DNA from: Patescibacteria group bacterium
GTDB lineage: Bacteria > Patescibacteriota > Minisyncoccia > Moranbacterales > UBA2206
Direction: 5' to 3'
Assembly: GCA_022709735.1 (NCBI GenBank)
Contig: JAKLIG010000002.1
Location: 130,028-194,027, forward strand
DNA length: 64,000 nucleotides
Within the stretch, counting starts at the first letter, position 1; each line of letters starts with the position of its first letter. The notes below the pieces were generated by a model. That model ran no database searches, was not told the DNA's origin, and saw only the letters and a list, made by a program, of their open reading frames with translations. Positions 450-48,374 of the stretch are shown here, one piece after another. The position numbers and the translations under genes were made by a program.

Positions 450-459
450 ATATTAAAAT

Positions 460-1218
460 TTAACTATTATTTTTTTCCTTTTGGAGCACTTTCATTTGCT
501 GAATTATAGCAAAAACCGTAGAAACAAGCCAGTAGAGAGAAAGCCCAGCTGGAAATTTTATCCCAATAAAAAGCGTGAGTAGTGGGCCAAAATACATCAT
601 CTGTTTAGACATCACCTGTGAAATATCTGGGGTAGAATTCTTATCTTGCGCCACTGTTTTCGGAGTTATCATTTTTATCTGAACATATTGCGCCACTGCC
701 GCCAAAACTATCAAAATAAGCTGGGGAACAACTTTAATATCCAACTGATTCAGGTTAATTGTTTTTGAAAGATCAATAATTCCCAGAAAATATTGATTGA
801 TTTGACCTGGGTTAGAAACAAAAGAATAAAGTTCTTTTGGATCAACTAGGAGTCCAGCCTTTGAAATATTAAAAAGCACTTGATAAATCGCAATTAAAAA
901 AATGAGCTGAAAAATTGTCGGCAAGCATCCAGAAAAAGGATTGGTTTTGTTTTGCTTATAAAATTCCATCAGCGCCCGGCTTTGCTTTTCCTTGTCGCCC
1001 TTGTGTTTTTCTTGAATTTCTTTGATTTTTGGCTGCATTTCCTGCATTTTTTTCTGTGATTCAATTTGCTTGCGACTAAGCGGTATTAGAATAAATTTCA
1101 AAACTAAAGTCACAATAATAATCGCCACGCCAAAATCATGGAAGGGGATAATGTTATAAACAAAAATTAAGAAGTTATAAATCGGACGATAGACAGTTTC
1201 TCCAAAAAGTAGTGACAT
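460..1218 (-). CDS. yidC: membrane protein insertase YidC (short form)
   Basis: 252-aa multi-TM ORF with a YidC-like C-terminal region (FPAGLSLYWLVSTVFAIIQQ); positioned between rnpA and jag. Confidence 0.85.
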   Translation of the reverse strand: MSLLFGETVYRPIYNFLIFVYNIIPFHDFGVAIIIVTLVLKFILIPLSRKQIESQKKMQEMQPKIKEIQEKHKGDKEKQSRALMEFYKQNKTNPFSGCLPTIFQLIFLIAIYQVLFNISKAGLLVDPKELYSFVSNPGQINQYFLGIIDLSKTINLNQLDIKVVPQLILIVLAAVAQYVQIKMITPKTVAQDKNSTPDISQVMSKQMMYFGPLLTLFIGIKFPAGLSLYWLVSTVFAIIQQMKVLQKEKNNS

Positions 1219-1245
1219 TTTATTTTATAAATTTATTGAAATTAA

Positions 1246-1587
1246 TTATACTAACTTGGCTTTTTCCAGCACTGACATTAAATCTCTTTCCAAGTCTTTG
1301 CTCAAAATTTCTTTTTTACTGCTCTTTTTTAGAGAAATTACCAAATCAAAGCTTTCTTTTATTTTTCCTATATTTTTTCTCACTATTTCCCTAAGTTGTC
1401 TCTTGATCCTATTCCTTTCCACGGCTTTTTTGGAAAATTTTATTCCCACAAGAAATCCTGCCCGAGTTTTTCCAGTGTTATTTTTTTTCACTTTCAAAAA
1501 AACTACTCCAAAAGAAAAAAAGCTGCCCAAGCGGTGGACTTCCTCAAAATCTTTTTTATTAGTGAGGCGGTTTTTGCGAGGAAGCAT
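1246..1587 (-). CDS. rnpA: ribonuclease P protein component
   Basis: 113-aa basic protein MLPRKNRLTNKKDFEEVHRLGSFF...; typical RnpA start and position directly downstream of rpmH. Confidence 0.85.
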   Translation of the reverse strand: MLPRKNRLTNKKDFEEVHRLGSFFSFGVVFLKVKKNNTGKTRAGFLVGIKFSKKAVERNRIKRQLREIVRKNIGKIKESFDLVISLKKSSKKEILSKDLERDLMSVLEKAKLV

Positions 1588-1596
1588 ATAAATAGA

Positions 1597-1731
1597 TTAC
1601 AGAGCTAGTTTTTTTCGGCCTTCTCTTCTTCTTCTTTTCAGGACATTTTTTCCGTTTTTTGTGCGATTTCTTTTTCGAAACCCGTGTCTTTTTTTTCTTT
1701 TAGCGCTTTTTGGCTTGTATGTTATACTCAT
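1597..1731 (-). CDS. rpmH: 50S ribosomal protein L34
   Basis: Not in the ORF track because it is under 60 aa. Manual minus-strand translation gives [44 protein letters not shown], the L34 signature. Start is revcomp of cat at 1729-1731; stop is tta at 1597-1599. Confidence 0.85.
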
Positions 1732-1739
1732 TTTTTTGT

Positions 1740-1950
1740 ACTTAATTAATTTAATTAGATTTTATCAGCTTGAGCGTTAAAAGTCAATTTATTTTGCAAA
1801 TATTTGCATTTATTTTATTTTTATATTATATCTAAATTAAGTTCATGCACATCTTATTAACATTCTTATCCACTTTTTACTTAGACTGATTTTTCTAGTT
1901 GTGATATACTTTTTTTACTGTCCAATTCTTTATTTAATTAACATAATAAA
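1740..1950. other. AT-rich dnaA upstream region with one DnaA-box-like 9-mer (TTATCCACT, 1866-1874); minor origin-associated region
   Basis: 8/9 match to TTATCCACA; very AT-rich spacer between divergent rpmH and dnaA. Confidence 0.3.
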
Positions 1951-3327
1951 ATGACCAACGAGGAGCTTTGGCAAACAGCCCTGGGGGAAATAGAGCTTTC
2001 AATTTCAAAGGCTAATTTCATCACTTGGTTTAAAAACACCGCCGTTCTTTCTATAAAAGACGGCCATGTGGTTGTTGGCGTGCCCAATGGTTTTGCCAAG
2101 GAATGGCTGGAAAATAAATATGACCTTTATATTTTACGCGCGCTTAAAAATATTCAAGAAGATATTAAATCTGTTTCTTGCCTAATTTCTTCCGGATCTC
2201 CCCAAAATTTCCCTAAAATAAGCCAAGAACCAACTGTAGACGCTATTCAAGCGCCGAAAAAAACAACTTCTTTTTTTGAAAAAAAAGCACCAATAAGCCA
2301 AGAAAGTAATCTTAATCATCGCTATACTTTTGAAAATTTCGTTATTGGAGGGAGTAATGAGCTTGCCCGCGCCGCCTGTTTTGCTGTTTCTCAAAGTCTC
2401 GGTAATGTTTATAACCCACTTTTCATTTATGGCGGGGTTGGGCTTGGAAAAACCCACCTTATTCAGTCTATTGGCAACGAAGCCCTAAGATTAAACCCAA
2501 AAATTAGAGTTAAATATATTTCTTCGGAAAGATTCACTAGCGACCTTATTGATTCCATAAAAAACCAAAAAATCAAGGAATTTAAGGAATATTACCAAAA
2601 AATCGACCTTCTTATTATCGATGATATTCAGTTTATTTCCGGCAAAGAAAAAACCCAAGAAGAGTTTTTCCATATTTTCAACTATCTTTATCAATTAAAC
2701 AAGCAAATTGTCCTTTCTAGCGACCGGGCGCCAAAAGCCATCCAAATTCTAGAGGAAAGACTTCGTTCGCGCTTTGAGGGCGGGATGATTGCTGATGTTT
2801 CTAAACCCGACCTTGAAACAAGACTAGCCATTCTCAAAAGAAAAGTAGCTCAAGATGGGGTAGAAATCACCGAAGACGCCCTAGAATTCATCGCCACAAA
2901 CATTAAAAATAACATTCGTGAACTAGAAGGCGCCCTAAACCGTGTTTCTGTGAGCGCCCAATTAACTAAAAAATCAGTAGATTCTGCTTATACAAAGCAA
3001 ATTTTGTCAGATATCATCTCTAGTGGAAAGAAAAAAGGCATTACTCATAAACACATAATTAAGGTTGTTTCTGATTTTTATGAGATAGATCCGAGTGATT
3101 TAATCGCTAAAAACAGAAAGCAAGAAGTGGTAAAGCCCCGTCAAATAGCGATGTTTCTTATGCGAAGCGAGCTTTCCTACTCTTATCCTGGGATTGGCGA
3201 TAAATTAGGCGGAAGAGATCATACTACTGCTATTCATGCTTACGAAAAAATTTCTGAAGCCCTAAAAATAGACGAAAAACTTACTGAAGAATTAGCCACC
3301 ATAAAAGATCTCCTTTATACAATTTAG
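1951..3327 (+). CDS. dnaA: chromosomal replication initiator DnaA
   Basis: 458 aa; Walker A GGVGLGKTHL; AAA+ boxes; C-terminal DNA-binding domain (HTTAIHAYEKI). Confidence 0.95.
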   Translation: MTNEELWQTALGEIELSISKANFITWFKNTAVLSIKDGHVVVGVPNGFAKEWLENKYDLYILRALKNIQEDIKSVSCLISSGSPQNFPKISQEPTVDAIQAPKKTTSFFEKKAPISQESNLNHRYTFENFVIGGSNELARAACFAVSQSLGNVYNPLFIYGGVGLGKTHLIQSIGNEALRLNPKIRVKYISSERFTSDLIDSIKNQKIKEFKEYYQKIDLLIIDDIQFISGKEKTQEEFFHIFNYLYQLNKQIVLSSDRAPKAIQILEERLRSRFEGGMIADVSKPDLETRLAILKRKVAQDGVEITEDALEFIATNIKNNIRELEGALNRVSVSAQLTKKSVDSAYTKQILSDIISSGKKKGITHKHIIKVVSDFYEIDPSDLIAKNRKQEVVKPRQIAMFLMRSELSYSYPGIGDKLGGRDHTTAIHAYEKISEALKIDEKLTEELATIKDLLYTI

Positions 3328-3339
3328 TCAAAATTGGGC

Positions 3340-3605
3340 ATATCCTGTGGATAATCTATTTATATCTACCCCCAAAACCCTGTGGCTAACCCTAAAAATA
3401 AAATGTTTTTAACCTGAAGTATTTTTAAAAAATCAAAAAATACTCCAAAACATACCCCACTAAAAACACCCTCGAAAAACACTTATCCCACACTTATCAA
3501 CACATATTTTAGTTTATATAAAGCAAATTCTAAACTTATCCCCCAAAATACCTTCCATAATAAATAGTAGTAAGTTTATATTAATTAATAAAATATTAAA
3601 ATACT
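3340..3605. other. candidate oriC: DnaA-box cluster plus AT-rich unwinding element between dnaA and dnaN
   Basis: Perfect box TGTGGATAA (3346-3354). Degenerate boxes TGTGGCTAA (3381-3389), TTATCCCAC (3484-3492), TTATCAACA (3495-3503) and TTATCCCCC (3535-3543). Followed by an extremely AT-rich stretch at 3560-3600 just before dnaN. Confidence 0.55.
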
Positions 3606-4763
3606 ATGAAACTAATTTGCACTCAAGAAAATTTTAAAAAGGCTATTTATAATTGTGAGAGAGTAGTTTCTAAAAAAAATACTCTACCAATTTTAAATAA
3701 CATTCTTTTTGAAGCCCAAAAGGGTAGTTTAAAGCTATCTGCCACAAACCTAGAAATAGGTGTTTCTTCAAAAATAGGCGCAAAAATAGAAAAAGAGGGG
3801 AAAATAACCATCCCAGTAAGAATTATTAGTAATTTTTCCACTAATTTGCCAGGTGGTGAAAATATAACTCTAGAGCTTTTGGATAATAATTTGAAAATAA
3901 AAAGCGGGGGAAATAGAGCTGTATTAAAGGGAATTTCTGCGGAAGATTTTCCTCTTATTCCTTCTAAAAAAACCGAAAACCTATTAGATTTGTCTAGTTT
4001 TGAGTTAAAAAACGCCATTTTAAAGGTTATGCCAGCAGTAGCCTTTAATGAAGCGAGGCAAGAATTAACTGGAATTAACCTTATTTTAAGGGAAAAAGAG
4101 CTTTGTTTTGCGGCCACTGATAGTTTTCGTTTGGCGGAATTTAGGCTTAAAATAGAGGAAAAAAACACAAATCCGGTTAATTATAGGGCTTTTATTGAAA
4201 AAAATGAAAATATTATCATTCCTTCAAATGTACTTCTAGAACTTAATCGAATTTTAGCGCCGGAAATTGAAACTAGAGTAAAAATTACAATTGAAGAAGG
4301 GCAGATATTTTTTGAGATTGATGGCACAAAACTAGTTTCCCGGCTTATTAATGGGAAATATCCGGAATATAAACATATAATGCCGACAAATTTCAAAACT
4401 AGGATAGTGGGCGAGAAGCAAGTTTTGCAAAACGCAATCAAAATGGCGAGTGTTTTTTCTTCTGGTGGATCAAATGAGATAACGCTAAAAATTGAGGCAG
4501 AAGAAAAGAAAATATCTATTCTATCCTCGAGTGCAGAAGCAGGAGAAAACACCGCAGAGCTCAAGTTTGACATTACTGGGCCGTCTCAAGAAGTGGTGTT
4601 TAATTCTAAATATCTTTTGGATGGAATTAATTCAATTTCTTCCGGTCAGGTGGCAATTTTATTAAATAGCGAGGCTACGCCAGTGGCCGTTCGGGAAATT
4701 AATGAAAAAACCGGCGAAGTTTTGGATGATTTCACTTACATCGTTATGCCGATTAAGAATTAA
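3606..4763 (+). CDS. dnaN: DNA polymerase III beta sliding clamp
   Basis: 385 aa, MKLICTQENFKKAI... three-domain clamp-like length; immediately after dnaA. Confidence 0.9.
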   Translation: MKLICTQENFKKAIYNCERVVSKKNTLPILNNILFEAQKGSLKLSATNLEIGVSSKIGAKIEKEGKITIPVRIISNFSTNLPGGENITLELLDNNLKIKSGGNRAVLKGISAEDFPLIPSKKTENLLDLSSFELKNAILKVMPAVAFNEARQELTGINLILREKELCFAATDSFRLAEFRLKIEEKNTNPVNYRAFIEKNENIIIPSNVLLELNRILAPEIETRVKITIEEGQIFFEIDGTKLVSRLINGKYPEYKHIMPTNFKTRIVGEKQVLQNAIKMASVFSSGGSNEITLKIEAEEKKISILSSSAEAGENTAELKFDITGPSQEVVFNSKYLLDGINSISSGQVAILLNSEATPVAVREINEKTGEVLDDFTYIVMPIKN

Positions 4764-4789
4764 GAAGAAAGAAGTAGGAAGTAAGATAT

Positions 4790-4905
4790 AAATAAAATCC
4801 AAAGTTCAAAGCTCAAATTCCAAATAAAGCCAAAATGACAAAATTAAAAATTTAGATTTTGGATTTGATTTGGAATAATTTGGATTTTGGAATTTGAATT
4901 TAATA
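4790..4905. repeat. imperfect inverted repeat built from CAAAGTTCAAA/TCCAAAT units (left arm) and their complements TTTGGATTTTGGAATTTGAATTT (right arm)
   Basis: Read directly: aaatccaaagttcaaagctcaaattccaaataaagccaaaatgacaaaat ... attttggatttgatttggaataatttggattttggaatttgaattt. The right arm runs into the annotated trxB start. Confidence 0.5.
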
Positions 4906-14889: not shown

Positions 14890-15393
14890 TTAATGGTTTA
14901 AATTATTTAATTTCCGGCTATTTAAATGACAGATGGCAATCGCAATGGCGTCCGCTGTGTCATCGGGTTTCGGCAGTTTTTCCAAATGCAAAATATTTTT
15001 TGTCATCATTTGCATTTGTTTTTTCTCGGCTCGGCCATATCCGGTGATCGCTTGCTTTACTTGGAGCGGAGTATAACTCGAAACTCTAACATTATTTTGC
15101 TTTAAAGTCAAGAGAATTGCGCCTCTGGCTTGGGCCACAGTGATGATTGTTTTTTGATTTTTAAAAAAGAAAATTTCTTCCACTCCCGCTTCCTGTGGTT
15201 TATATTTTGCAATTATCTTTTCAATATCCCTCGAAATTTCCAAAATCCTTTCCGCGTCAGTTTTTTGAGGCGAAGTAGCAATATGCCCATAAGAAACCGG
15301 TTCTATTTTTCCGTTTTTTTCTTCTAGTATCGCCCAGCCAGTGGTGGCGGTGCCAGGATCAATTCCTAAGACGCGCAAGTTATCATTTTTCAT
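14890..15393 (-). CDS. ruvC: crossover junction endodeoxyribonuclease RuvC
   Basis: MKNDNLRVLGIDPGTATTGWAILEE... catalytic Asp in GIDPG; 167 aa. Confidence 0.85.
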   Translation of the reverse strand: MKNDNLRVLGIDPGTATTGWAILEEKNGKIEPVSYGHIATSPQKTDAERILEISRDIEKIIAKYKPQEAGVEEIFFFKNQKTIITVAQARGAILLTLKQNNVRVSSYTPLQVKQAITGYGRAEKKQMQMMTKNILHLEKLPKPDDTADAIAIAICHLNSRKLNNLNH

Positions 15394-15538: not shown

Positions 15539-16153
15539 CTAATTGGGTATGATAGAAAAATATCCGACGGGTGTTTTAATAATTTTACCGCCCCAAGACT
15601 CAACTTCTTTTTTTGAATAGCGCTTTATAGCGGTGAAATCTTCCATTATAAAACTATCATTTTTGATACAATTAATTTTTAAATTAATTGATTTAAAATA
15701 TTCTTGAGCCAAGCCATTATCAAATTCTTCTCCGTATACAGAAATAATGATGACTTTGCCAAGCTCCTTCATTTTCGCAATGGATTTGTCCTGTTCTGGA
15801 ATGTATCCCAATGTGTTGTTGAGACAAATCACATAATCAAAATGAGGCAAGGCCGGAGGATTAGTAATATCGCCATGAATAAAATTTACACAGAGACCTG
15901 CTATGGCGATTTTTTGTTTTGCGAGTTCTACTAAAGAAGCTTCAATTTCAAGGCCAGTAATTTTCAAATCAGGACGAACTTCAAGTAAACGAATAGCTCT
16001 TGCTCCATCCATACTGCCAACTTGCAAAACACGAGCATTTTTTGGGAGCATAAGACGTAGCAGGTCAATTTCTTTGAGCCAATTATCTCTATTTGGTTTT
16101 GGTATATTTTCTAAAACGTCACAGTTTACATACACATCTTTTAATGAGGGCAT
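15539..16153 (-). CDS. class I SAM-dependent methyltransferase (cargo of the insertion)
   Basis: Motif I VLQVGSMDGARAI; acidic post-I LEIE; 204 aa. Confidence 0.7.
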   Translation of the reverse strand: MPSLKDVYVNCDVLENIPKPNRDNWLKEIDLLRLMLPKNARVLQVGSMDGARAIRLLEVRPDLKITGLEIEASLVELAKQKIAIAGLCVNFIHGDITNPPALPHFDYVICLNNTLGYIPEQDKSIAKMKELGKVIIISVYGEEFDNGLAQEYFKSINLKINCIKNDSFIMEDFTAIKRYSKKEVESWGGKIIKTPVGYFSIIPN

Positions 16154-16216: not shown

Positions 16217-16344
16217 CTAGTATCGCCCAGCCAGTGGTCGCTGTGCCGGGATCAATTCCCAAGACGCGCAAGTTATCATTTTTCATAGCTTAATTATACT
16301 TCCAAAACGAGTTTTTTAAAAGTTGTTTGAGACAAAAAAATAAC
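16217..16344. repeat. direct repeat copy 2. It carries a fossil ruvC start fused to a fossil yebC 3' end (16172-16200 copies the yebC stop region).
   Basis: Minus-strand reading from ATG (cat at ~16288-16290) gives MKNDNLRVLGIDPGTATTGWAILEKIKIEEIFDNL*: ruvC N-terminus joined to the yebC C-terminal residues EEIFDNL. Confidence 0.8.
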
Positions 16345-21938: not shown

Positions 21939-22199
21939 ATGAAAGGACGGTGTTTTATGAAAAAAATCATTTTGGTTGTAGTGTTATTAAGTATGTTTTT
22001 GCTTGTAGGTTGCAGTGACAATCCACAGGAAAGAAACATGCAAGGTATGTCGGTCATGCTGGCTGGTATAATGGTTAATATCTGGTTAGGAATTATGGCC
22101 ACACATAATTATTCAAGAGAACTCAAAAAATTATTAATTTTTTTATGCAAGAAAAATGGGGCATCAGAAAAAGATATTAAAGAAATACTCAAAAAGTAA
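21939..22199 (+). CDS. lipoprotein (signal peptide + lipobox LLVGC)
   Basis: MKKIILVVVLLSMFLLVGCSDNPQ... Confidence 0.55.
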   Translation: MKGRCFMKKIILVVVLLSMFLLVGCSDNPQERNMQGMSVMLAGIMVNIWLGIMATHNYSRELKKLLIFLCKKNGASEKDIKEILKK

Positions 22200-22232
22200 C
22201 CAGGCGCGGAGGGCCTGGCGAGAAAAATAAAA

Positions 22233-27441: not shown

Positions 27442-27939
27442 ATGCAAAAAATAACTTATATAACTGAAAATTCTAAACAAACTCAAAAGCTTGGCGAAAC
27501 TTTAGCCAAGGAATTAAAAGGCGGGGAAATAATCTGCCTTGTCGGTGAGCTTGGCGGAGGAAAGACAACTTTTACGCAAGGTTTTCTCAAAGGCTTGAAA
27601 GTCAAAGGGCCATATACAAGCCCAACCTTTCTTGTAATTAAAAATTACAAGAAAGAAATCTCAATTTCCAAATCCCAAATTCCAAATAAATCTCAAAATC
27701 CAAAATCTAAAACCTTGCCTACCGGCAGGCAGGTCCAAAATATTTATCACATAGATACTTATAGGATCAATGCGCAAGATATAATAAATCTTGGCTGGGA
27801 AGAAATGGTGGCTGATAAAAAAAATATTATTATAATAGAATGGGCGGATAGGATAAAAAAGATAATTCCAAAAAATAGTTTATGGATTGAGTTTAGTTGG
27901 GTTGATGAGAAAAAGAGAAAAATAACACTGAAAGACTAA
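27442..27939 (+). CDS. tsaE: tRNA t6A37 biosynthesis ATPase TsaE with an in-frame low-complexity insert
   Basis: GELGGGKTTFTQGF P-loop; the insert KSQIPNKSQNPKSKTLPTGRQ is encoded by CCAAAAT-type heptamer repeats plus the palindrome TTGCCTACCGGCAGGCAGG. Confidence 0.8.
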   Translation: MQKITYITENSKQTQKLGETLAKELKGGEIICLVGELGGGKTTFTQGFLKGLKVKGPYTSPTFLVIKNYKKEISISKSQIPNKSQNPKSKTLPTGRQVQNIYHIDTYRINAQDIINLGWEEMVADKKNIIIIEWADRIKKIIPKNSLWIEFSWVDEKKRKITLKD

Positions 27940-28018: not shown

Positions 28019-30766
28019 ATGAAAAATAAACCTAAAAAACTCATTCTGATTGACGGCAATGCGATAATTCATCGGTCATATCATGCGCTTCCACCACTTA
28101 CGACTAAAAGCGGGGAATTGGTCAACGCCGTTTATGGTTTTGCCTCTACCATACTTAGCGTGATTTCAAAATTCAAGCCAGACTATATTTTGGCGACTTT
28201 TGATTTGGCCGGACCGACTTTTCGCCACAAGGAATATGCGGATTATAAAGCCACCAGAGTCAAAGTTGATCAGGAACTTTATGACCAAATTCCGCGCGTG
28301 AAAGAATTGGTTCGCGCGATGGGAATTCCAATTTATGAGCATGCTGGATTTGAAGCGGACGATGTGATTGGAACGATGGTTAAAAAAACAGAAAATAATT
28401 TTGGGGATATTGAAAATATAATTGTGACAGGGGATCTTGATACTGTTCAATTAGTGAGTCCGAAAACTAAAGTTTATACAATGCGCCGGGGGCTCACTGA
28501 TTCAGTAATATACGATGAGGAGAAAGTTTTTGAAAGATATGGTCTGAAACCGGATCAAATAATTGATTATAAAGGACTTCGTGGTGATCCATCGGACAAT
28601 ATTTTGGGCGTCAAAGGTATCGGCGAAAAAACAGCTTCGGAATTATTACAAAAGTATAAAACGCTGGAAGGAGTTTATGAAAATATTTCTGAAATTAAAG
28701 GCACAGTCAAAGAAAAATTGGAACGAGACAAAATGCAGGCCATTCAAAGCAAGCATTTGGCGACAATTCATCAGGAAGTTCCAGTAGAGCTGAATTTAGA
28801 AGAAGCCAAGACCCACGAATTCGACAGAGAAAAGCTGGTAAGACTTTTTCAGGAGTTGAATTTTTATTCGCTAATAAAGCGTATTCCGCAAGGCGACTCG
28901 AATATTGCGAATGAACACTCGAATGATTCGAATAAAGTAAGTGGTATAAAAGACTTTAAATACGAGTTGGTTAATGAAAAAAATAGCGAAGAATTTCTTA
29001 AGATGCTTGGCGAGCAAAAAGAAATTGCCATAAAGTTAAAATTTATTGGGGACAGAATTTTAGAAAAAAAATTAATCGGAATTGCTTTTTCTTGGAAAAC
29101 CGGAAGAGCAGGTTTTATAGCAGGAATTAGGAATCAGGAATTAGGAATCAGGAATATTTTAGAAAATGGAAATATAAAAAAGATTGGATATGATCTCAAG
29201 AGTGACATTGAAATATTGAAACAAAATGGAATAAATTTGAAAGGAGAATTATATGATGTAATGCTCTCGGCTTATGTGTTGAATCCTGGAGCGAAAATGG
29301 AATTTTCAAGATTAGTCTTGGAGCAATTGGGCGAGGAAATGGCAGAAGAAAAAAAGAAAGGACAGCTGGGACTTCAAATGGAAACTGAAAAAGAAATTTC
29401 AGAGAAAGAATGCCGGAATGCAGATTATATTTTTAAGCTTAAGGAAATTTTTTCTGAAAAGATTTCAAAGATATCAGAAGAACAAAAAAGCGAAAATAAT
29501 TTAGAAAATATATTAAATAAAGTCGAAATTCCGCTGGTCAAAATTTTGGCAGAAATGGAAATAGCGGGCGTGAAATTGAACACGCTTATATTTGAAGGCA
29601 TCGCGGAAAAAATAAATGGACGCGTAAAAAATTTAGAAAAAAATATTTATGAACTCGCTGGCGAGGAGTTTAATATTAATTCTCCAAAACAATTGAAAGA
29701 AATTCTTTTTGAGAAATTAAAAATCTCGACGGATAATATCAAAAAAGGCAAGACTGGTTTTTCTACCGCTTCATCGGAACTGGAGAAATTAAAAGGGGAA
29801 TATAAAATTGCCGAAAAAATTGAAGAGTATCGCGAAGTTTTCAAACTGAAAACTACATATTTAGATGCCCTTCCGCTACTCGTGGATAAAAATTCTCGGA
29901 TTCACACGACTTTCAATCAAGCGGTGACAGCCACTGGACGGTTGTCTTCTTCTGATCCAAATTTGCAAAATATTCCCATTCGAACTGATCTTGGACAGCT
30001 TCTTCGCGTGGCTTTTGAAGCGGAAGAAGGCTATAAACTTGTCAGCGCTGACTATTCGCAAATTGATCTTCGCGCGGTGGCGCATGTATCAGGCGACAAA
30101 AAAATGATTGAACTTTTTCATGCGGGTCATGATATTCACACGGCTACAGCTTCAGAAATAAATAAAGTTTCATTTTCTCAAGTGACGCAAAAAATGAGAA
30201 GTTCGGCTAAGGCTTTGAATTTCGGAGTGATTTATGGTATGAGCGTATTTGGTTTTTCCGCTTCGGCTGGAATTTCCCGAGACGACGCCAAAAAATTTAT
30301 TGATGCTTATTTTGAAAAATTCACCGGCGTGGCGGAATATATGAAATCAACTAAGGAATTTGCGAAAATCAATGGCTATGTCGAAACTGAAATGGGACGC
30401 CGGCGTTATATTCCAGAAATTAATTCACCAAATTTTATGGTGCAAAATGCGGCCGAACGGATGGCGATTAATATGCCGATTCAAGGCATGTCAGCGGACA
30501 TTGTGAAGCTAGCAATGATAAAAGTTCATGAGGAATTTTTTAGAAGCTCAACTTCTTTCGACCAAAACGACCGAGAGAAGTTGAGCTTCCAGCCGGGCGA
30601 TGTAAAAATAATTCTGCAAGTGCATGACGAAATAATTTTGGAAGTTAAAGAGACATTAGCCGAAGAAGTCGGAAAGAAAGTCAAAGAAATTATGGAAGGT
30701 GTTTATAAACTCAAAGTTCCGCTGGTGGTGGATGTGAAGATTGGGGATAATTGGGGAGAAATATAA
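28019..30766 (+). CDS. polA: DNA polymerase I (5'-3' exonuclease + polymerase domains)
   Basis: N-terminal 5' nuclease LILIDGNAIIHRSYHA; polymerase motifs RRRYIPEINS and QVHDEIILEV. Contains an in-frame AGGAATY x5 heptamer repeat at 29122-29156. Confidence 0.95.
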   Translation: MKNKPKKLILIDGNAIIHRSYHALPPLTTKSGELVNAVYGFASTILSVISKFKPDYILATFDLAGPTFRHKEYADYKATRVKVDQELYDQIPRVKELVRAMGIPIYEHAGFEADDVIGTMVKKTENNFGDIENIIVTGDLDTVQLVSPKTKVYTMRRGLTDSVIYDEEKVFERYGLKPDQIIDYKGLRGDPSDNILGVKGIGEKTASELLQKYKTLEGVYENISEIKGTVKEKLERDKMQAIQSKHLATIHQEVPVELNLEEAKTHEFDREKLVRLFQELNFYSLIKRIPQGDSNIANEHSNDSNKVSGIKDFKYELVNEKNSEEFLKMLGEQKEIAIKLKFIGDRILEKKLIGIAFSWKTGRAGFIAGIRNQELGIRNILENGNIKKIGYDLKSDIEILKQNGINLKGELYDVMLSAYVLNPGAKMEFSRLVLEQLGEEMAEEKKKGQLGLQMETEKEISEKECRNADYIFKLKEIFSEKISKISEEQKSENNLENILNKVEIPLVKILAEMEIAGVKLNTLIFEGIAEKINGRVKNLEKNIYELAGEEFNINSPKQLKEILFEKLKISTDNIKKGKTGFSTASSELEKLKGEYKIAEKIEEYREVFKLKTTYLDALPLLVDKNSRIHTTFNQAVTATGRLSSSDPNLQNIPIRTDLGQLLRVAFEAEEGYKLVSADYSQIDLRAVAHVSGDKKMIELFHAGHDIHTATASEINKVSFSQVTQKMRSSAKALNFGVIYGMSVFGFSASAGISRDDAKKFIDAYFEKFTGVAEYMKSTKEFAKINGYVETEMGRRRYIPEINSPNFMVQNAAERMAINMPIQGMSADIVKLAMIKVHEEFFRSSTSFDQNDREKLSFQPGDVKIILQVHDEIILEVKETLAEEVGKKVKEIMEGVYKLKVPLVVDVKIGDNWGEI

Positions 30767-32320: not shown

Positions 32321-33187
32321 ATGCCAGAATTACCTGAAGTGGAAACTGTCGTTAGCGACTTAAATAAAAAAATCAAAGGCGATATGATCGCTTCTTTTTG
32401 GAGTGAATGGGGGAAAGCAATTAAGGGCAAAAGCATAGAAACTTTTAAAAAAGAAATTAAGAATAGAAAAATTTTAGGCGCGAGAAGGATTGGAAAAAAT
32501 ATTTTTATTGATTTATCCGGCGGAAAAACTTTATATATACATTTGAAGATGACAGGACATCTTTTGGTAAAGAAGAAAGAAGAAAGAAGTAAGAATAAAG
32601 AAAAATCAGATTATTTTTCTGACAGGGTTAATCAGTATATTAGGCATAAATTTTTTCTTAAATCCGGGCGGACGCTGGAATTTTCGGATTTGAGGAAATT
32701 CGGGAAAATTGTTTTGGATTCAACGGAAAAGATAAATAATCTCAAAGAAATAAAAGCGCTAGGAGTTGATGCGCTGGATCCAAAATTTACTTTTCAAAAA
32801 TTTCAAGAAATTTTGAGAAAAAAATCAAGCGCCAAAATTGGAATAATCCTTATGGATCAAGATCTGATTGCGGGTATTGGAAATATTTATCGAAGCGAAA
32901 TTCTATATGATGCGGGAATTTTGCCGGAAAGAATTATAAAATCAATTTCAGAAAAAGATTTGAGAAAAATTTACGATGCAACCAAAAAAATCTTGAAAAA
33001 AGCCATAAAAATGCGGGGAACATCGGACAGTGATTACCGCGATACTTCCGGTGCGCCGGGAAATTTTCAAAAAATTTTAGCTGTGTATAATCGGGAGAAG
33101 CGAGGATGCAAAAGGTGTGATACAATAATTCAGAGAAAAGTACTAGGGCAAAGAAGCGTGTTTATTTGTTCCAAGTGTCAAAAATAA
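32321..33187 (+). CDS. mutM: formamidopyrimidine-DNA glycosylase (Fpg/Nei family)
   Basis: N-terminal MPELPEVETV; C-terminal zinc finger CKRCDTIIQRKVLGQRSVFICSKCQ. Contains the purine-rich insert KKKEERSKNKEKS at 32572-32610. Confidence 0.85.
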   Translation: MPELPEVETVVSDLNKKIKGDMIASFWSEWGKAIKGKSIETFKKEIKNRKILGARRIGKNIFIDLSGGKTLYIHLKMTGHLLVKKKEERSKNKEKSDYFSDRVNQYIRHKFFLKSGRTLEFSDLRKFGKIVLDSTEKINNLKEIKALGVDALDPKFTFQKFQEILRKKSSAKIGIILMDQDLIAGIGNIYRSEILYDAGILPERIIKSISEKDLRKIYDATKKILKKAIKMRGTSDSDYRDTSGAPGNFQKILAVYNREKRGCKRCDTIIQRKVLGQRSVFICSKCQK

Positions 33188-33275
33188 ATTTAATTTACGA
33201 ACTACGAAAATAATACGAAATACTAAAATACGAAAAAATGTTTCGTATTTCGCTCATTTCATATTTCGTAAAACA
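33186..33275. repeat. TACGAAA/TTTCGTA palindromic leader element (copy 1)
   Basis: tttacgaactacgaaaataatacgaaatactaaaatacgaaaaaatgtttcgtatttcgctcatttcatatttcgta; CGAAATAC/GTATTTCG inverted repeats. Confidence 0.5.
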
Positions 33276-33280
33276 TAAAC

Positions 33281-34438
33281 ATGAACAAGAAACAAAAAAT
33301 AATCATTGCTATTCTGATAATAGCAATCGTAGCAGGAGGATTCTATTTCCTCAAGAAAAATAGTTCTACTAAGGTGAAGCAAATAGATTTGGAAAAAGTT
33401 CAACAGAATGCTGGTCCGGCGAACACTGGTCCCGTGAGTCCAATTTCTGGAATAAGTTGTGATAATTGGAATCGCCGTCCAGTAGCAGTTATGCAACCAT
33501 CTGATGTGCAGGCTCGTCCAGCCGCCGGATTTTCCGAGGCTGATATGGTAGTTGAAATGCCAGCGTATACTTCATCAGTTACGCGTCTTATGGGAGTTTA
33601 TGTTTGCAATATTCCCAAAGAAATCGGAGCGATTAGAAGTTCCCGTCATGACTACATTGCTATCGCTAAAGGGCTAGATGCATTTTTTATTCATTGGGGT
33701 GGTTCGCATTTTGCGCTTGATCTTTTAGGAAAAAATATTATAGATAGAATTGATTGTATGACAACCAGTTATTGCGGAAGATGGCCAGTTTCCGGAAAGA
33801 TGAGATTGGAAGACACCGGGCACATCACCGGAGAAAAAGTTTTGGAAGCGATGAAAAACTTGAACCTTAGAATGGAAAGCAATTTTTCCGGTTACCCTCA
33901 TCAGGATGAAGTGCCAATTGATCAACGGCCAAGCGGAGGACACCTTCAAGTATCTTTTGCTAATCCTTATGATGCCCAGTATGATTATGATAAAAATTCC
34001 AACTCGTATCTTAGGGTTTGGGGAGGAGAAAATGATACCGATCGGAATAATAATCAGAGATTGGCTCCAAAAAATATAGCGGTGATTTTTGCCAAATCAG
34101 AACAAATAGTTAATACAAAAGATTATAAGGGTCTTGGACTTTCTGATCCTTGGGAAGGCGTGGAGGCTGTGAAAAATACCGGAGTAGAAAGTATTAGCGG
34201 ACGATACAATAATGTTGAGATTGGTGATCCTTGGTATGATGAAACTGACAATGGACCAGCAAAATATTATTTCAATGGAAAAGAATATAGTGGTACTTGG
34301 AAAAAAGACAAAGCGAAAATTGACAGTAAGATGTTTTTCTATAATGAAAGTGGTCAGGAAATACGATTTGTTCCGGGACAAATTTGGTTGGAAATTTTGG
34401 AGCCCGGGCAGACGCTTAAATGGGAACCAGTTAATTAA
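33281..34438 (+). CDS. DUF3048-family secreted protein
   Basis: N-terminal TM/signal; ...RRPVAVMQPSDVQARPAAGFSEADMVVEM..., typical of the DUF3048 N-domain. Confidence 0.55.
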   Translation: MNKKQKIIIAILIIAIVAGGFYFLKKNSSTKVKQIDLEKVQQNAGPANTGPVSPISGISCDNWNRRPVAVMQPSDVQARPAAGFSEADMVVEMPAYTSSVTRLMGVYVCNIPKEIGAIRSSRHDYIAIAKGLDAFFIHWGGSHFALDLLGKNIIDRIDCMTTSYCGRWPVSGKMRLEDTGHITGEKVLEAMKNLNLRMESNFSGYPHQDEVPIDQRPSGGHLQVSFANPYDAQYDYDKNSNSYLRVWGGENDTDRNNNQRLAPKNIAVIFAKSEQIVNTKDYKGLGLSDPWEGVEAVKNTGVESISGRYNNVEIGDPWYDETDNGPAKYYFNGKEYSGTWKKDKAKIDSKMFFYNESGQEIRFVPGQIWLEILEPGQTLKWEPVN

Positions 34439-34460
34439 GAAGTAAGAATAAAGAAGTAAA

Positions 34461-35440: not shown

Positions 35441-35775
35441 GTACTTTTTCTCGCCGTGAGAAAAAGTACCAAAAAGAACTCTCAGCCCAATTTTGTCTCT
35501 GACAAATTTTCAGCTGGCTCGCTAAAATTTATGTTCCGCTTCGCTCCATAATAAATTTTTTAACGCTCGCCAGTTTCAATTTGCCTGCCTGCCGGTAGGC
35601 AGGTATCATCGCCAAAATAGGCTGAATGAAAATTAGAAAAATAAAATTTACAGCGAAGGGAGCAGAAAAGTTGAGCTTTAATGGGAAGCCTAAGATTTTC
35701 AAAAAGCTCAACTTTAATGAAGCGCAATTTTTTCAAAATAAAAACACTCCCTTTGCAGGGAGTGTTTATTTTTAC
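35441..35775. repeat. ~330-bp non-coding repeat element, copy A (5' hairpin, conserved 130-nt core, variable middle, conserved hairpin, 3' terminator hairpin)
   Basis: About 85-90% identical to 48386-48707 across aactctcagccYaattt...cgcttcgctccataataaattttttaacgctcgc and gttgagcttta...aaagctcaactttaatgaag...ttttttcaaaataaaaac. Terminal hairpin CACTCCCT-TTGC-AGGGAGTG (35745-35764). Confidence 0.6.
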
Positions 35776-38107: not shown

Positions 38108-39079
38108 ATGGATAGCAATTTTCTTCAATCAAAAGAATGGCGGGGATTTCAGGAGGTGGTGGGGCGAAAGACGTCTTGTATTGATAGTGAAAATTTTTCT
38201 GCCAGTATAATTGAACATAATCTTCCAATTGTTGGAAAGTATTTTTATATTCCGAAAGGACCAATTATAGAAAATCAAAATGCAAATCTCAAAAATAAAA
38301 ATGACAATGCAAAATTAAAAAATAATTTAAATGAATTAATAGATTTGGCGGAAAAAGAAAAAGCGGGATGGATTAGGATTGAGCCGGAGAATGAGGAAAT
38401 TTTGGAAATGATTAAAAAAAATATAAAAAATAAAATAACTAAGGCTCCGCATGAAATGCAACCGAGAGAAAGTCTAATTCTTGATATTACAAAAACCGAA
38501 GAAGAATTATTGGCAGAGATGAAAAGTAAAACTCGATATAACATTAAAGTTGCTGAAAAACATGGAGTAAAGATTAAGAAACAAGAAAAAAGCGAGGAAT
38601 ATATCGAAGAATTTTTGAGGCTAACAAAAATAATGGCCAAAAGACAAGGAATCGAAACGCACAGTGGAGAATATTATCAAAAAATGTTTGAGATAATTCC
38701 GGGCGATGTTATTAAATTATATGTGGCGGAATATAAAAATAGAGTAATCGCCGCGAATATTATGATATTCTTTGGCGACACTGCGACTTATCTTCACGGC
38801 GCATCGGATGACCAGTATAGAAATGTTATGGCGCCGTATCTTCTTCAGTGGCAAGCGATAAAAGATGCGAAAGCTGAAGGATTTAAAAAATATGATTTCT
38901 TTGGAGTGAAAGTTAAAAACAAGTCTGGAAAATCCTGGGAAGGAATAACCAGATTTAAGACTGGATTTTCTCCAAGCACAGATCCTATTGAATTTCCGGG
39001 CTGTTATGATATAGTGATTAATCCAATAAAATATTGGGTATATAGAATAATTCAGAAAACAAAGAGTTTTGTAAGATAA
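38108..39079 (+). CDS. FemAB-family (FemX-like) peptidoglycan peptide-branch aminoacyltransferase
   Basis: MDSNFLQSKEWRGFQ... GNAT-like FemAB N-terminus; contains a low-complexity insert NQNANLKNKNDNAKLKNN. Confidence 0.65.
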   Translation: MDSNFLQSKEWRGFQEVVGRKTSCIDSENFSASIIEHNLPIVGKYFYIPKGPIIENQNANLKNKNDNAKLKNNLNELIDLAEKEKAGWIRIEPENEEILEMIKKNIKNKITKAPHEMQPRESLILDITKTEEELLAEMKSKTRYNIKVAEKHGVKIKKQEKSEEYIEEFLRLTKIMAKRQGIETHSGEYYQKMFEIIPGDVIKLYVAEYKNRVIAANIMIFFGDTATYLHGASDDQYRNVMAPYLLQWQAIKDAKAEGFKKYDFFGVKVKNKSGKSWEGITRFKTGFSPSTDPIEFPGCYDIVINPIKYWVYRIIQKTKSFVR

Positions 39080-39084
39080 TTTTT

Positions 39085-40395
39085 ATGAAAAAGTTGGTCC
39101 CACAATCCATCAAAAATATCTATCATCTTTTCCAAGCCGTCTTGGCTAATTTGATTTATGGCTTTCCTTCAAAAAATATAAAAGTTATTGGAGTAACAGG
39201 AACAAATGGCAAGACTACGACTGTGCAGATGATCACAAAGATTCTGGAAGAATCGGAGAAGAAAGTTGCCATGGCGTCAACGATCAATTTTAAGCTAGGT
39301 GAAAAAGAATGGGTAAATGCAACAAAATTTACCACTCTCTCCAGTTTCAAAGTACAGAAATTTATTAAAGAGGCGGTTAAAACTGGTTGCGAATATTTAG
39401 TTTTAGAAACTTCTTCCCATTCATTAGATCAATTCAGAACTTGGGGAATAAAATATGACACGGCTGTTATTACAAATATAACTCGCGAGCATTTGGACTA
39501 TCACAAAACGATGGAAGAATATCGCCGAGCTAAATTGAAATTATTTAAAAATGCGAGAGTAGTAGTGGTTAATTTGGATATGGAAAAGCCGCAAAATTTT
39601 ATTAAATTTGGTGAAGAGAATATTTTCGGATACACTATGGAAAATCAAAAATCAAAAATCAAAAATCAAAATGACAATATAAAATTTAAAATTATTCAAG
39701 CCAAAGATATTGAATTAGGAATTGATTATGCTAAATACAAAATATCCGCCCAAGGCGGACCAGCCTTTGGCTGGCAAGATACAAACTTCAGGCTTAATTT
39801 GCTTGGCAAATTTAATATTGAAAACGCTTTGGCAGGGACCTGTGTTGGCTTGGCCTATGGAATTTCTTTAGAAACAATAAAAAACGCGCTTGAAAAAATT
39901 AAAGGCGTGCCGGGAAGAATGGAGCGAGTGCCAAACGATGAAGGAATTGAAATTATTATTGATTATGCGGTGACGCCAGATAGCTTGGAAAAGGTGTATA
40001 GTCTTATTTCTCAAAGTAAAAAAGAAAATGCAAAAATTATTTCAGTCTTTGGTTCTTGCGGAGAGCGTGATCGTGGGAAGCGGCCAATTATGGGCGAAAT
40101 TGTTTCGCGCTATGCGGATTATATAATTCTCACTAACGAAGATCCGTACGGAGAAGATCCAGAACAAATAATTGGGGAAGTTGAATCAGGAATTAAGAAG
40201 CATGAATTAGGAAAAAATTACTGGATAATTATGGATAGAAGAGAAGCAATTAAAAAGGCCTTGCAAATTGCAAAGCCTGGAGATATTTTTGTGATTACTG
40301 GAAAAGGAGCGGAAGAGGTTATGGCAATCGGCGAAAAAAGAATTCCGTGGAATGAAAAAAAAGTTATCCAAGAAGTCTTGCAAGAATTAGTGTAA
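39085..40395 (+). CDS. murE: Mur ligase (MurE-like UDP-MurNAc-tripeptide synthetase)
   Basis: VIGVTGTNGKTTTVQMI P-loop; DNAANP-like and C-terminal Mur-ligase domains; in-frame AAAATCA x4 heptamer at 39640-39675. Confidence 0.75.
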   Translation: MKKLVPQSIKNIYHLFQAVLANLIYGFPSKNIKVIGVTGTNGKTTTVQMITKILEESEKKVAMASTINFKLGEKEWVNATKFTTLSSFKVQKFIKEAVKTGCEYLVLETSSHSLDQFRTWGIKYDTAVITNITREHLDYHKTMEEYRRAKLKLFKNARVVVVNLDMEKPQNFIKFGEENIFGYTMENQKSKIKNQNDNIKFKIIQAKDIELGIDYAKYKISAQGGPAFGWQDTNFRLNLLGKFNIENALAGTCVGLAYGISLETIKNALEKIKGVPGRMERVPNDEGIEIIIDYAVTPDSLEKVYSLISQSKKENAKIISVFGSCGERDRGKRPIMGEIVSRYADYIILTNEDPYGEDPEQIIGEVESGIKKHELGKNYWIIMDRREAIKKALQIAKPGDIFVITGKGAEEVMAIGEKRIPWNEKKVIQEVLQELV

Positions 40396-46780: not shown

Positions 46781-46870
46781 AAATTTACGAACTACGAAAT
46801 TAACGAAATACGAAACAAGAAGAAATATTTTTCGTATTTTTGTATTTCGTATTAAATTCGTATTTTGTAA
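46781..46870. repeat. TACGAAA/TTTCGTA palindromic leader element (copy 2)
   Basis: tttacgaactacgaaattaacgaaatacgaaacaag...tttttcgtatttttgtatttcgtattaaattcgtatttt; shares the TTTACGAACTACGAAA start with copy 1. Confidence 0.5.
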
Positions 46871-46874: not shown

Positions 46875-48374
46875 ATGAAAAGAACCAAGATTGTCGCGAC
46901 TATTGGACCAGCGACTGATTCCAAGGAAAAACTAAAAAAATTAATCAAGGCCGGGATGAATGTCGCCCGAATTAATTTTTCTCATGGCGATCAAAAATCT
47001 AATGGGAAATTAATAAAGTATATAAAAGAACTTAGAAAAGAATTAAAAACTCCAATTGGGATTATGGCTGATCTTCAAGGGCCGAGGATTAGAACATTGG
47101 TTGAACAGGATATTAAGGTAGAGAAAGGGGAAACTATCTTGGTAGGAGACACTTCTTTTGGATCTCAAAATCCAAAATCCAAATTTCAAATTTCAAATAA
47201 AATCCAAAATCTCAAATCCAAAAATAATACTAAATCCAAAATCCAAAATCCAAAATATTTTCTTTTGGATTGGCCAGGAATAATTAAAAATATAAAAATC
47301 AAAAACGAAATTTTGATTGAAGACGGGCTAATCAAACTCAAAGTAATTGGAAAAGAAAAAGATTTTCTGAAAGCTGAAGCGATAAACGGCGGAGTTATCA
47401 AAAATCACAAAGGCGTGAATATTCCGGATACTAATTTGAAATCCGGCGCGGTGACGAAAAAAGATTTGGATGATTTGGAATTTGCACTTTTGCAAGATGT
47501 GGATTTTATCGCGCTGTCTTTTGTGAGTAATGCCAAGGAAATAATTAATATTAAAAATAAAATTGGAAAAATTCTTGGACGGAAAAATCAATTGCCTCAA
47601 GTCGTGGCAAAAATTGAAAGAAAAGAAGCGATAAAAAATATTTCTGAAATAATCAAAGCAACGGATGCAATTATGGTGGCGAGAGGCGATCTCGGAATTG
47701 AAATGAATGAAAGCAAAGTCGTGATTTACCAAAAAGAAATAATTGCCAAATGCTTGCGTTCAGCGACTCCCGTAATTGTGGCAACCCAAATGTTAAATTC
47801 CATGATTGAAAATCCTCGCCCGACGCGAGCGGAAGTAGGCGATGTCTCAAACGCGGTTATTGATCATACTGATGCGGTAATGCTTTCCGGAGAAACAGCC
47901 AATGGCAAATATCCGATTCAAGCGGTAGAAACAATGACGGAAATTATAAGAAACACAGAAAAATCGCCTTTTGACAATTTGGAACATGGCTTTTTGGGAG
48001 ACAAAAAAAACAGTGCTTCAGCCGCGATTGCCCACAGCGCCCATGAACTTTTGAAAGACACAGCTTCCAAGGCAATTGCAGTGGCAAGCGTTTCTGGTTT
48101 TACGGCGCGAATGATTTCGAGGCATCGTCCGGAAAGTTTGATTTTTGTCATGACTAACAATGAAAAAACTCATCAGCAACTAAGTTTGATTTGGGGAGTG
48201 CAAAGTTTTGTTTTGCCAGATTGCAAAACGATGGACGAACTTATTGATAGATCAATGGAAACTTTGAAAAAAGAAAAGATGGTAAAAATTGGAGATAAAT
48301 TGATTGTAGTTATGGGTCGTCCGCATAAAACCAAAGAACATATGAGTCTCGTGAAGGTGGAGGAAGTGAGATAA
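46875..48374 (+). CDS. pyk: pyruvate kinase with a ~35-aa in-frame low-complexity insert
   Basis: MKRTKIVATIGPAT...; the insert SFGSQNPKSKFQISNKIQNLKSKNNTKSKIQNPKY is encoded by CCAAAAT heptamer repeats at 47164-47254. Confidence 0.9.
   Translation: MKRTKIVATIGPATDSKEKLKKLIKAGMNVARINFSHGDQKSNGKLIKYIKELRKELKTPIGIMADLQGPRIRTLVEQDIKVEKGETILVGDTSFGSQNPKSKFQISNKIQNLKSKNNTKSKIQNPKYFLLDWPGIIKNIKIKNEILIEDGLIKLKVIGKEKDFLKAEAINGGVIKNHKGVNIPDTNLKSGAVTKKDLDDLEFALLQDVDFIALSFVSNAKEIINIKNKIGKILGRKNQLPQVVAKIERKEAIKNISEIIKATDAIMVARGDLGIEMNESKVVIYQKEIIAKCLRSATPVIVATQMLNSMIENPRPTRAEVGDVSNAVIDHTDAVMLSGETANGKYPIQAVETMTEIIRNTEKSPFDNLEHGFLGDKKNSASAAIAHSAHELLKDTASKAIAVASVSGFTARMISRHRPESLIFVMTNNEKTHQQLSLIWGVQSFVLPDCKTMDELIDRSMETLKKEKMVKIGDKLIVVMGRPHKTKEHMSLVKVEEVR

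Follow-up and report, generated by a model that had tools for sequence, protein, structure and literature searches.

Among the described repeats that come closest to the one reported here are the Rickettsia palindromic elements (RPEs; Ogata et al. 2000), which PMC3184786 lists and discusses along with further repeats joined in frame to genes. A second related kind is formed by heptanucleotide long simple sequence repeats (LSSRs), among which are the cyanobacterial short tandemly repeated repetitive sequences (STRRs), GGGNATC in Xanthomonas and Nostoc, and TAACTGA in Beggiatoaceae (Mrazek 2007 via PMC4679880; PMC4692102). According to the same sources, heptanucleotides are the commonest class of long simple sequence repeats in many bacteria, and a polymerase-contact length has been proposed as the cause (Mrazek 2007 via PMC4679880, PMC4692102). 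Here we describe a G-free repeat of about 57-62 nt, the CAAAT-heptad element, in a 64,000-nt stretch of a genome of Candidatus Moranbacteria (the window; contig JAKLIG010000002.1, positions 130,028 to 194,027), where it lies in the pyruvate kinase gene pyk, in tsaE and in the dnaN-trxB spacer. By analogy, it appears to be both an RPE-like in-frame repeat and a heptanucleotide LSSR, in a structurally different form. Nothing specific on heptanucleotide or palindromic in-frame repeats in Patescibacteria (candidate phyla radiation, CPR) was found in the literature, which is weak evidence given the incomplete coverage.

Like the RPEs, the element is a short dispersed repeat that occurs between genes and in frame within housekeeping genes, where the open reading frame (ORF) is kept and the peptide is placed at tolerant positions. 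The host is again a small-genome bacterium. RPEs are, however, palindromes of about 105-146 nt, whereas the element is shorter and consists of 7-nt units. Its genic copies are usually one-armed and cannot fold, and it is palindromic only intergenically. The host phylum also differs, and the likeness is one of behaviour, a sequence relationship not being expected given the composition. With the heptanucleotide LSSRs and STRRs it shares 7-nt tandem units that are over-represented in certain lineages, lie near gene ends when intergenic, vary in copy number and have 7-nt slippage as a proposed cause. In any one genome those repeats are dominated by a single unit or very few, and they are mostly intergenic, with under-representation in ORFs, whereas the lineage studied here holds more than 35 units, with many arrays in frame in the middle of essential genes, and one family with a fixed, dispersed consensus of several heptads.

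An earlier note on this DNA had listed heptamer repeats at six sites (pyk, tsaE, murE, a FemAB-family gene termed Fem, polA and the dnaN-trxB spacer) and had derived all of them from one common A-rich repeat. All six were present essentially as described, and at every genic site the insertion as a whole keeps the frame. The products of tsaE, murE, the FemAB-family gene and polA are identical to the same-named NCBI proteins of a Candidatus Moranbacteria metagenome-assembled genome (MAG). With an nhmmer profile built from 35 metagenome copies, we found four matches in the window, at three loci: pyk, tsaE and the two arms of the spacer. These three are therefore copies of one dispersed A/C-rich repeat family that occupies both coding and non-coding DNA (E values from 1e-10 to 7e-6). 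The murE, Fem and polA arrays gave no match to this profile in the window; murE and Fem on the one hand and polA on the other are distinct, so that the sequence sharing claimed earlier holds for only part of the sites.

The host gene pyk (46875..48374, + strand) encodes a protein 100% identical to an NCBI pyruvate kinase of Candidatus Moranbacteria (PF00224/PF02887), which aligns to solved pyruvate kinases. Within it lies a G-free heptamer tract of 105 nt (47162..47266, +), the longest G-free run in the window. It comprises about 14 imperfect heptamers (Tandem Repeats Finder (TRF): period 7 x13.9 at 47166-47256, 73% matches), and its translation, ...GSQNPKSKFQISNKIQNLKSKNNTKSKIQNPKY..., is the peptide quoted previously. 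The tract adds a net +20 aa relative to the closest homologues. A full copy of the element with the core CAAATTTCAAATAAAATCCAAAAT occupies 47167..47223 (+; nhmmer E 1.4e-10, 37 bits), and beyond the profile match follows a partial second copy or tandem extension, AATAATACT(AAATCCA)x3, at 47224..47256 (+). An exact 11-nt direct repeat, TTCTTTTGGAT, brackets the insert, with its upstream copy at 47153..47163 and its downstream copy at 47260..47270 (both +), the latter being the conserved F-L-L-D-W codons; TTGGATTGG is kept in orthologues. The 11-nt repeat may have arisen as a target duplication, may be a microhomology that served in copying, or may be a coincidence; the probability of its occurring by chance is about 0.015 by a rough hand estimate. 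In addition, the element's unit has TTTTGGAT as its reverse complement. In RNA folding, the G-free pyk copy formed no structure except at its flanks, where the upstream TTCTTTTGGAT copy pairs with the first heptads.

The pyk insert site is a loop of the B domain that varies in length across 120 homologues. In the AlphaFold (AF2) model, built with 86 sequences, the mean predicted local distance difference test (pLDDT) score was 89, whereas block means were 66/48/45/68 for residues 91-130, with values above 90 in the rest of the protein; the insert is thus predicted to be a low-confidence loop at a tolerant position of the protein. The three closest homologues (79% identity; P0002/3/5, L001) have no insert, while low-complexity inserts of other kinds occupy the loop in several homologues that are more distant. 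At the DNA level the loop is empty in L001 (79%) and in L002, L004, L009 and L014 (72-73%), while L017, L021, L024 and L029 carry other heptamer arrays. The pyk gene of L018, at only 55% amino acid identity, holds the same element in the same loop, with a near-identical core of about 41 nt. Filled and empty sites thus exist among the orthologues, with boundaries that are not clean since the loop itself varies.

We searched public metagenome contigs for the exact 24-mer CAAATTYCAAATAAAATCCAAAAT and found it in 40 stretches. When the copies were anchored on this 24-mer, conservation reached about 20 nt upstream and about 14 nt downstream and then fell to background. The resulting consensus, approximately AAAATCCAAATGACAAAATCCAAATTTCAAATAAAATCCAAAATCCAAAT, consists of roughly eight degenerate CAAAWYY heptads, among which AAATGAC, AAATTTC and AAATAAA are fixed and non-periodic. 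The host genes of the copies belong to at least 17 unrelated families, in which the element lies in frame: GalT, KsgA, GyrA, SecA, LigA (two copies in a single gene), a class I aminoacyl-tRNA synthetase (aaRS), the PolA 5' nuclease, a family 4 (GT4) glycosyltransferase, an O-antigen ligase (Wzy), a HypF/Kae1-like protein, LepA, MurE, a pilin, MnmA, PriA, an ABC ATPase and Pyk. It is read in two frames, as QISNKIQN and KFQIKSKIQ. These data support the suggestion of a tiny in-frame insertion element. Matches to the profile were confined to CPR DNA, with 12 in 0.46 Mb of CPR loci and 0 in 0.76 Mb of non-CPR loci.

Among the unique copies, 23 lie in the sense strand of long ORFs and two others overlap long antisense ORFs; of the latter, the L117 copy appears just upstream of the start of its ORF, and the L087 ORF has 161 aa. 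Several copies occur per genome at non-homologous loci, both intergenic and genic, with the ORFs preserved. Intergenic metagenome copies are followed by an inverted second arm, and three copies enclose a nested GC-rich hairpin, as in the tsaE gene of the window. In a palindrome test the intergenic copy folded (z = -3.3) and the genic pyk copy did not, while some genic copies of other families are perfect hairpins. The anchored comparison of 35 copies revealed neither terminal inverted repeats (TIRs) nor consistent flanking repeats of the target-site duplication (TSD) type, the 11-nt direct repeat being seen at the pyk copy only. No transposase was found for the element, for which the search was not systematic. 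In L081 a DDE_Tnp_4 gene lies close to tsaE but shows no evident link. The two matches of the 24-mer in viral contigs were uninformative, one being L129 (16,288 nt, the same size as the metagenome match L117) and the other a short intergenic partial.

The tsaE gene (27442-27939) carries the element at 27655..27711 (+; nhmmer E 3e-7), as an ancient insert of about 26 aa. Its heptamer array is a 61-nt G-free run (27656-27716). The earlier note had counted as part of this feature a separate GC-rich hairpin mini-insert, CTTGCCTACCGGCAGGCAGG (KTLPTGRQV), which is nested at the 3' end of the element (27714..27733, +). Residues 70-98 of TsaE (29 residues) stand in for 3 residues of the Thermotoga TsaE structure 6n9a. 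Together with the low pLDDT of the Pyk loop, this agrees with inserts in surface loops; the MurE insert region did not align to solved structures. An insert of about 22 residues is found at the same position in nearly all of the best 120 TsaE homologues (Moranbacteria/Parcubacteria), which contradicts the idea that all of the inserts are lineage-specific or recent. Most of these loops are of the CAAAT type and read K-E-[IF]-P-I-S-K-S-Q-[IF]-P-N-K-S-Q-N-P-K-S-K-I-Q.

Other TsaE loops read C-N-M-K-H-E-T-K...M-L-H-A-S-C-F-M-F-H, and their DNA is a perfect (CATGAAA)n-loop-(TTTCATG)n hairpin. In L081, for instance, a perfect 18+6-bp CATGAAA/TTTCATG hairpin lies within the coding sequence (tsaE 3215-3280; -31.7 kcal/mol, z = -6.7). 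The CATGAAA unit also occurs in intergenic arrays elsewhere in the genome of L081, which also gave L004, and in L002 and L009. Still other loops hold AAGAATT-type palindromes (L082), an ACGC/CCACG-type array (L083) or, in P0229, a GIRNKELGIRK arm similar to the peptide of the polA array. Each genome seems to have its own favourite heptamer. In a tree of TsaE, made to see whether the loop classes are clades, the classes were interleaved, but with about 130 residues this tree is too noisy to carry weight.

We then compared tsaE among six species with a CAAAT-type insert. The copy of the window is of the L084 type with the nested GC hairpin added, which is absent from the other five species (L084, L125-L128). 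The 66-nt loop showed 79-92% nucleotide identity, and 68-86% at third codon positions, as against 64-75% and 40-51% (near saturation) outside the loop. In register, the identity of the loop copies was 0.83, compared to 0.66 at a shift of 7, 0.53 at a shift of 14 and 0.36 after shuffling. Because in-register identity exceeds that of shifted and shuffled copies, neither composition nor mere periodicity suffices to explain the conservation of the loop.

In the dnaN-trxB spacer, the intergenic copy consists of a left arm (4795..4844, +; nhmmer E 7e-6) and a right, inverted arm (4847..4900, -; minus-strand E 6.5e-7). Folded together, the two arms give a long hairpin of -28.7 kcal/mol (z = -3.3). 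A consensus scan revealed no canonical intrinsic terminator at this hairpin. Furthermore, when the window was searched with Rfam covariance models, only two tRNAs reached the gathering score, and no known RNA family was assigned to the repeat.

In the window and 29 related Moranbacteria/Parcubacteria loci (0.53 Mb), perfect tandem arrays with three or more copies were tallied by period. For periods 5, 6, 7, 8 and 9 we found 2, 3, 28, 1 and 0 arrays, respectively. The period-7 arrays, 3 in the window and 25 in the related loci, compare with 0.0 expected from a first-order Markov simulation, and the pattern is thus far beyond chance. An excess was also seen at fewer copies (128 arrays versus 55 expected at 2.0-2.5 copies; 32 versus 0 at 2.5-3 copies), and TRF, run locus by locus, left the period-7 picture unchanged. 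No perfect period-7 array was present in 51 non-CPR control loci (0.76 Mb, of which 0.22 Mb below 46% GC). Since more than 35 different heptamer units contribute to the excess, the 7-nt periodicity is a property of the lineage and not of one sequence. There is in this lineage a strong bias, specific for length and independent of sequence, towards forming 7-nt tandem repeats and changing their size. Units that contain TAA or TGA (TAAGAAG, CATGAAA) occurred only outside long ORFs. A stop-free heptamer array, by simple arithmetic, encodes the same 7-residue repeat in all three frames; heptamer arrays therefore tolerate any insertion phase and are unusually insertable into genes.

Replication slippage, the other mechanism that had been suggested, operates as well, as arrays differ by 21 nt and by 63 nt between related species. 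L015 and L016, which share about 88% nucleotide identity across alignable DNA and whose pyk loops differ at 1/90 nt, show a difference of 14+7 = 21 nt within the murE arrays, while L004 and L009 show one of 48+15 = 63 nt beside an array. The interspecies copy-number differences in genes are frame-preserving multiples of 21. The earlier statement that any copy-number change would frameshift an essential enzyme was therefore too strong: changes of three units keep the frame, and such changes are found between species. Strain-level copy-number variants are not on record, all five host proteins being singletons in their own 90% clusters.

The remaining genic arrays belong to this wider heptamer phenomenon with its many units, and a single common repeat behind all inserts could not be upheld. 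The murE site-1 array, (AAAATCA)x4.4 followed by AAATGACAAT..., lies at 39636..39694 (+; perfect at 39641-39671) and is paralogous to the array of the FemAB-family gene (ENQNANLKNKNDNAKLKNN; 38266..38324, +, with the heptamer array at 38271-38325), to which it is 83% identical over 59 nt (E 1e-12). The polA array, (CAGGAAT/TAGGAAT)x5 at 29121..29155 (+), is perfect at period 14 and encodes GIRNQELGIRN. Among relatives, the murE site-1 loop holds other heptamer arrays of related or different units in L002, L015, L016, L019, L023 and L029, and the Fem loop holds a different mini-element in almost every lineage compared. The earlier note had reasoned that equivalent inserts of unrelated DNA in distant orthologues would mark the inserts as ancient, and this is partly what we observed: in murE, Fem and pyk the loops are hot spots of long standing, filled with differing heptamer families or with GC hairpins depending on the lineage. 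At murE site 2, five different units (TTCTCAA, ATTCAAA, CAAGCTA, CTATAAG and CCAACTA) encode the same beta-hairpin pattern with no change in length. Ordinary coding sequence can thus be replaced in situ by heptamer arrays, and insertion fails as the origin of the arrays at this site, which re-encode an existing beta-hairpin. A conserved mRNA hairpin between the site-1 and site-2 arrays (L015/L016/L019) was considered but set aside, as the units are by inspection only 5/7 complementary.

Two processes are superimposed in these genomes: a tendency to make 7-nt repeats and a discrete, dispersed heptad element in many genes. We consider it rather likely that the pyk tract is one copy, with a partial tandem extension, of this small dispersed repeat, present as a selfish or near-neutral in-frame mini-insertion upon which the heptamer bias is superimposed. 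The presence of the same element in many unrelated housekeeping genes across Patescibacteria argues that it arrived by insertion or copying and not by descent. The element would behave much like an RPE, and the surviving copies would be those that landed in a permissive loop with a hydrophilic orientation and a frame free of stops. The same loops would be hit repeatedly because only copies at permissive positions survive frequent insertion. Genic copies would be read through as a segment rich in N, K, Q, S and P, predicted with low confidence. Expansion, contraction and overwriting by heptamer arrays affect inserted copies and ordinary loops alike. Several points weigh against this explanation. 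Mobility is deduced from distribution alone, with no transposase, terminal inverted repeats or consistent target-site duplication. The sequence is of low complexity, and convergence could account for some of the likeness among copies. The metagenome matches were selected by an exact 24-mer and are silent on the rate at which copies decay, and translation of the insert is presumed from the preserved frame. Finally, the tsaE copy is conserved above neutral expectation and above its host gene, which a pure junk element would not predict; this keeps alive the possibility of a functional RNA or DNA signal, or of homogenisation by gene conversion.

The element might be such a nucleic-acid signal, maintained through selection or biased recombination, either an unstructured, G-free, C-periodic RNA platform or a DNA uptake or recombination sequence, but we regard this as unlikely. 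Candidates for a protein that would read the heptads or C-rich RNA are cold-shock proteins, Rho and S1. Cold-shock proteins bind about 7 nt each, and Rho binds C-rich, G-poor RNA. The uptake sequences of Neisseria and Haemophilus occur as inverted pairs between genes and also in tolerant parts of genes. Consistent with a signal, the tsaE copy is more conserved than its host gene, synonymous positions included, and copies stay near one consensus across species although third-position identity of tsaE outside the loop (0.40-0.51) is near saturation; the strong sense-strand bias, the tracts of 57-105 nt without any G and the inverted pairs at gene ends point in the same direction, and binding of CspB to heptamer repeats is noted in PMC4679880. 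Yet the genic positions are simply the permissive loops and share no fixed distance to gene ends, the hydrophobic peptides of the complementary strand (FWILFEI, FGFYLKF) account for the sense bias just as well, and a density of 3 loci in 64 kb is low compared to known uptake sequences. In other lineages the same loops are filled with unrelated heptamer families or GC hairpins, no binding protein has been identified, and the spacer lacks a terminator by consensus scan. A fuller version, in which selection or molecular drive (biased uptake or recombination, or recurrent gene conversion) keeps the signal in essential genes and a dedicated process that writes 7-nt repeats rewrites permissive loops, is in our opinion equally doubtful.

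A purely local origin is a little less probable still. Here each site would have arisen by independent slippage under the 7-nt bias of an AT-rich genome, no element would have moved, and the likeness of the copies would be convergence set by base composition, stop avoidance in all frames and selection for hydrophilic loops. The lineage-wide period-7 spike with its many unrelated units fits this explanation, as do the changes in copy number between species and the confinement of TAA and TGA units to intergenic DNA that a filter model predicts; moreover, murE site 2 demonstrates that arrays form in place. What it does not account for is the fixed order of the non-periodic units AAATGAC, AAATTTC and AAATAAA between sharp ends, the 24/24-nt identity in at least 17 genes and in intergenic hairpins, or an in-register identity clearly above that at shift 7. 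It also leaves open why the window and L018 carry the element in pyk while closer relatives have no insert at all. We find it very improbable that the peptide is what is selected, with a KIQNPKSK-like sequence acting as a flexible lysine-rich linker or as an interaction or localisation tag and the DNA likeness simply following. The TsaE loop peptide is widely conserved and many hosts bind nucleic acids (GyrA, LigA, PolA, PriA, aaRS, KsgA, MnmA), but the DNA is read in two frames and is untranslated between genes, conservation reaches third codon positions, quite different peptides occupy the TsaE loop in other lineages, and the pyk insert has low confidence in the model and is absent from the closest homologues. 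An artefact of sequencing or assembly is effectively refuted. The tracts are indeed of low complexity, and the Pyk and TsaE proteins have no record from Logan assemblies; the frame is nevertheless kept throughout, several sources, Logan assemblies among them, contain proteins identical to MurE, Fem and PolA, and arrays at orthologous positions are seen in dozens of MAGs and metagenomes that were deposited separately.

More distant comparisons are also instructive. Housekeeping proteins of Plasmodium falciparum contain Asn/Lys-rich low-complexity inserts at loops, which are derived from slippage and codon-based (3 nt). The two cases share an AT-rich genome, hydrophilic N/K-rich segments that interrupt conserved enzymes at loops, and an origin by slippage at the DNA level, but Plasmodium is a eukaryote with 3-nt repeats, without a dispersed consensus element or an intergenic hairpin counterpart (see also PMC3140889). 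Repetitive extragenic palindromes (REPs), bacterial interspersed mosaic elements (BIMEs) and MITEs (miniature transposable elements with inverted repeats) are likewise small, non-autonomous, hairpin-forming repeats that are sometimes fused to ORFs. REPs are extragenic by definition. The element described here is in frame in genes and lacks TIRs and a consistent TSD in 35 copies. Phase-variable contingency loci also have non-triplet repeats within ORFs, where a change of one unit would shift the frame. Here, in contrast, essential housekeeping genes are the hosts, the arrays sit mid-gene and are imperfect for the most part, the differences between species preserve the frame, and strain-level on/off variants are not on record.

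CPR genomes are among the smallest and supposedly most streamlined, yet essential enzymes (Pyk, TsaE, MurE, GyrA, SecA, LigA, PolA and others) appear from their sequences to hold translated small repeats. Selfish DNA inside protein-coding genes, best known from Rickettsia, would thereby be extended to a huge uncultured radiation and to a different element. Such repeats would account for many of the strange low-complexity inserts and "hypothetical protein" peptides seen in annotated CPR genomes, and they can distort alignments, phylogenies and structure predictions. The lineage offers an unusually clean natural system to study why bacterial slippage prefers 7-nt units, and the element and its nested GC hairpins could serve as ready markers by which CPR strains are typed and insertions in these lineages dated. 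In addition, the above-neutral conservation in tsaE hints at a testable function.

Besides the heptads, this 35% GC genome (32-40% within the window) contains GC-rich mini-hairpins at 27714-27733 (tsaE), 35580-35603 (intergenic), 39745-39774 (murE) and 22196-22226 (intergenic), which are in frame when genic. CTTGCCTACCGGCAGGCAGG is found both in tsaE and intergenically (35580-35603), with 0.07 matches expected by chance. The murE gene of the window carries a 30-nt double hairpin, TCCGCCCAAGGCGGACCAGCCTTTGGCTGG (SAQGGPAFGW), which is absent from L002 and L014; L015 carries the same 30-mer, with one mismatch, in its Fem gene (728-757), and L016 lacks it. Judged by their sequences, the mini-hairpins look like a second class of in-frame mini-insertion, and they are REP-like in appearance. 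The idea that heptamers are footprints of TSDs, left as 7-bp duplications by repeated insertion and excision, found no support, since in the murE gene of the window and in L015 fem the mini-hairpin accounts for exactly 30 extra nt, and no flanking duplication was seen at the sites inspected by eye. In viral contigs the 30-mer GC core had two matches, and the one examined (L132) was a chance match in a GC-rich coding region. Further hairpin families are present or absent between close species (L001, L002, L009, L014, L024), at L002 ~4794-4842, L001 ~2532-2573, the murE loop of L024, L009 ~3566 and the Fem loop of L002, L009 and L014. They include the 45-nt CCCGCCTCGACTCGC...GCGAGGCGGG in three different contexts, the 21-nt GCCTCATCGGCAGGCAGGCCT, a GGACATCAAATGTCC-type palindrome, and a GTCATCCTGAAC...GTTCAGCATGAC hairpin that encodes CHPELVSGS...MLKQVQHD.

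Several other heptamer families lie near genes of the window. Palindromic (TACGAAA)n/(TTTCGTA)n arrays precede pyk (46781..46847, no strand assigned), another heptamer family exhibiting the same phenomenon; the palindrome ends about 28 nt upstream of the pyk start codon, and a second TACGAAA array lies in another spacer (33196-33236). These palindromes may form a hairpin family, regulatory or terminator-like, that only this genome, L001, L002 and L014 possess. TAAGAAG arrays overlap or follow the stop codons at two gene ends (4754-4786 and 34433-34459), and ORF 32321-33187 contains, at 32569-32602, an array of AAAGAAG, the variant without a stop. The genes dnaA (1951-3327) and dnaN (3606-4763) coincide with the minimum of the cumulative GC skew (window 1-4800), and the replication origin therefore probably lies within the window; the heptad hairpin stands directly 3' of dnaN. 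Finally, a GC-rich segment of about 30 nt (GTATCGCCCAGCCAGTGGT.GC.GTGCC.GGATCAATT) is present twice, at 15330-15359 within ORF 14890-15393 (-) and at 16224-16252, about 70 nt beyond ORF 15539-16153 (-), and may represent duplicated gene starts or another small repeat.

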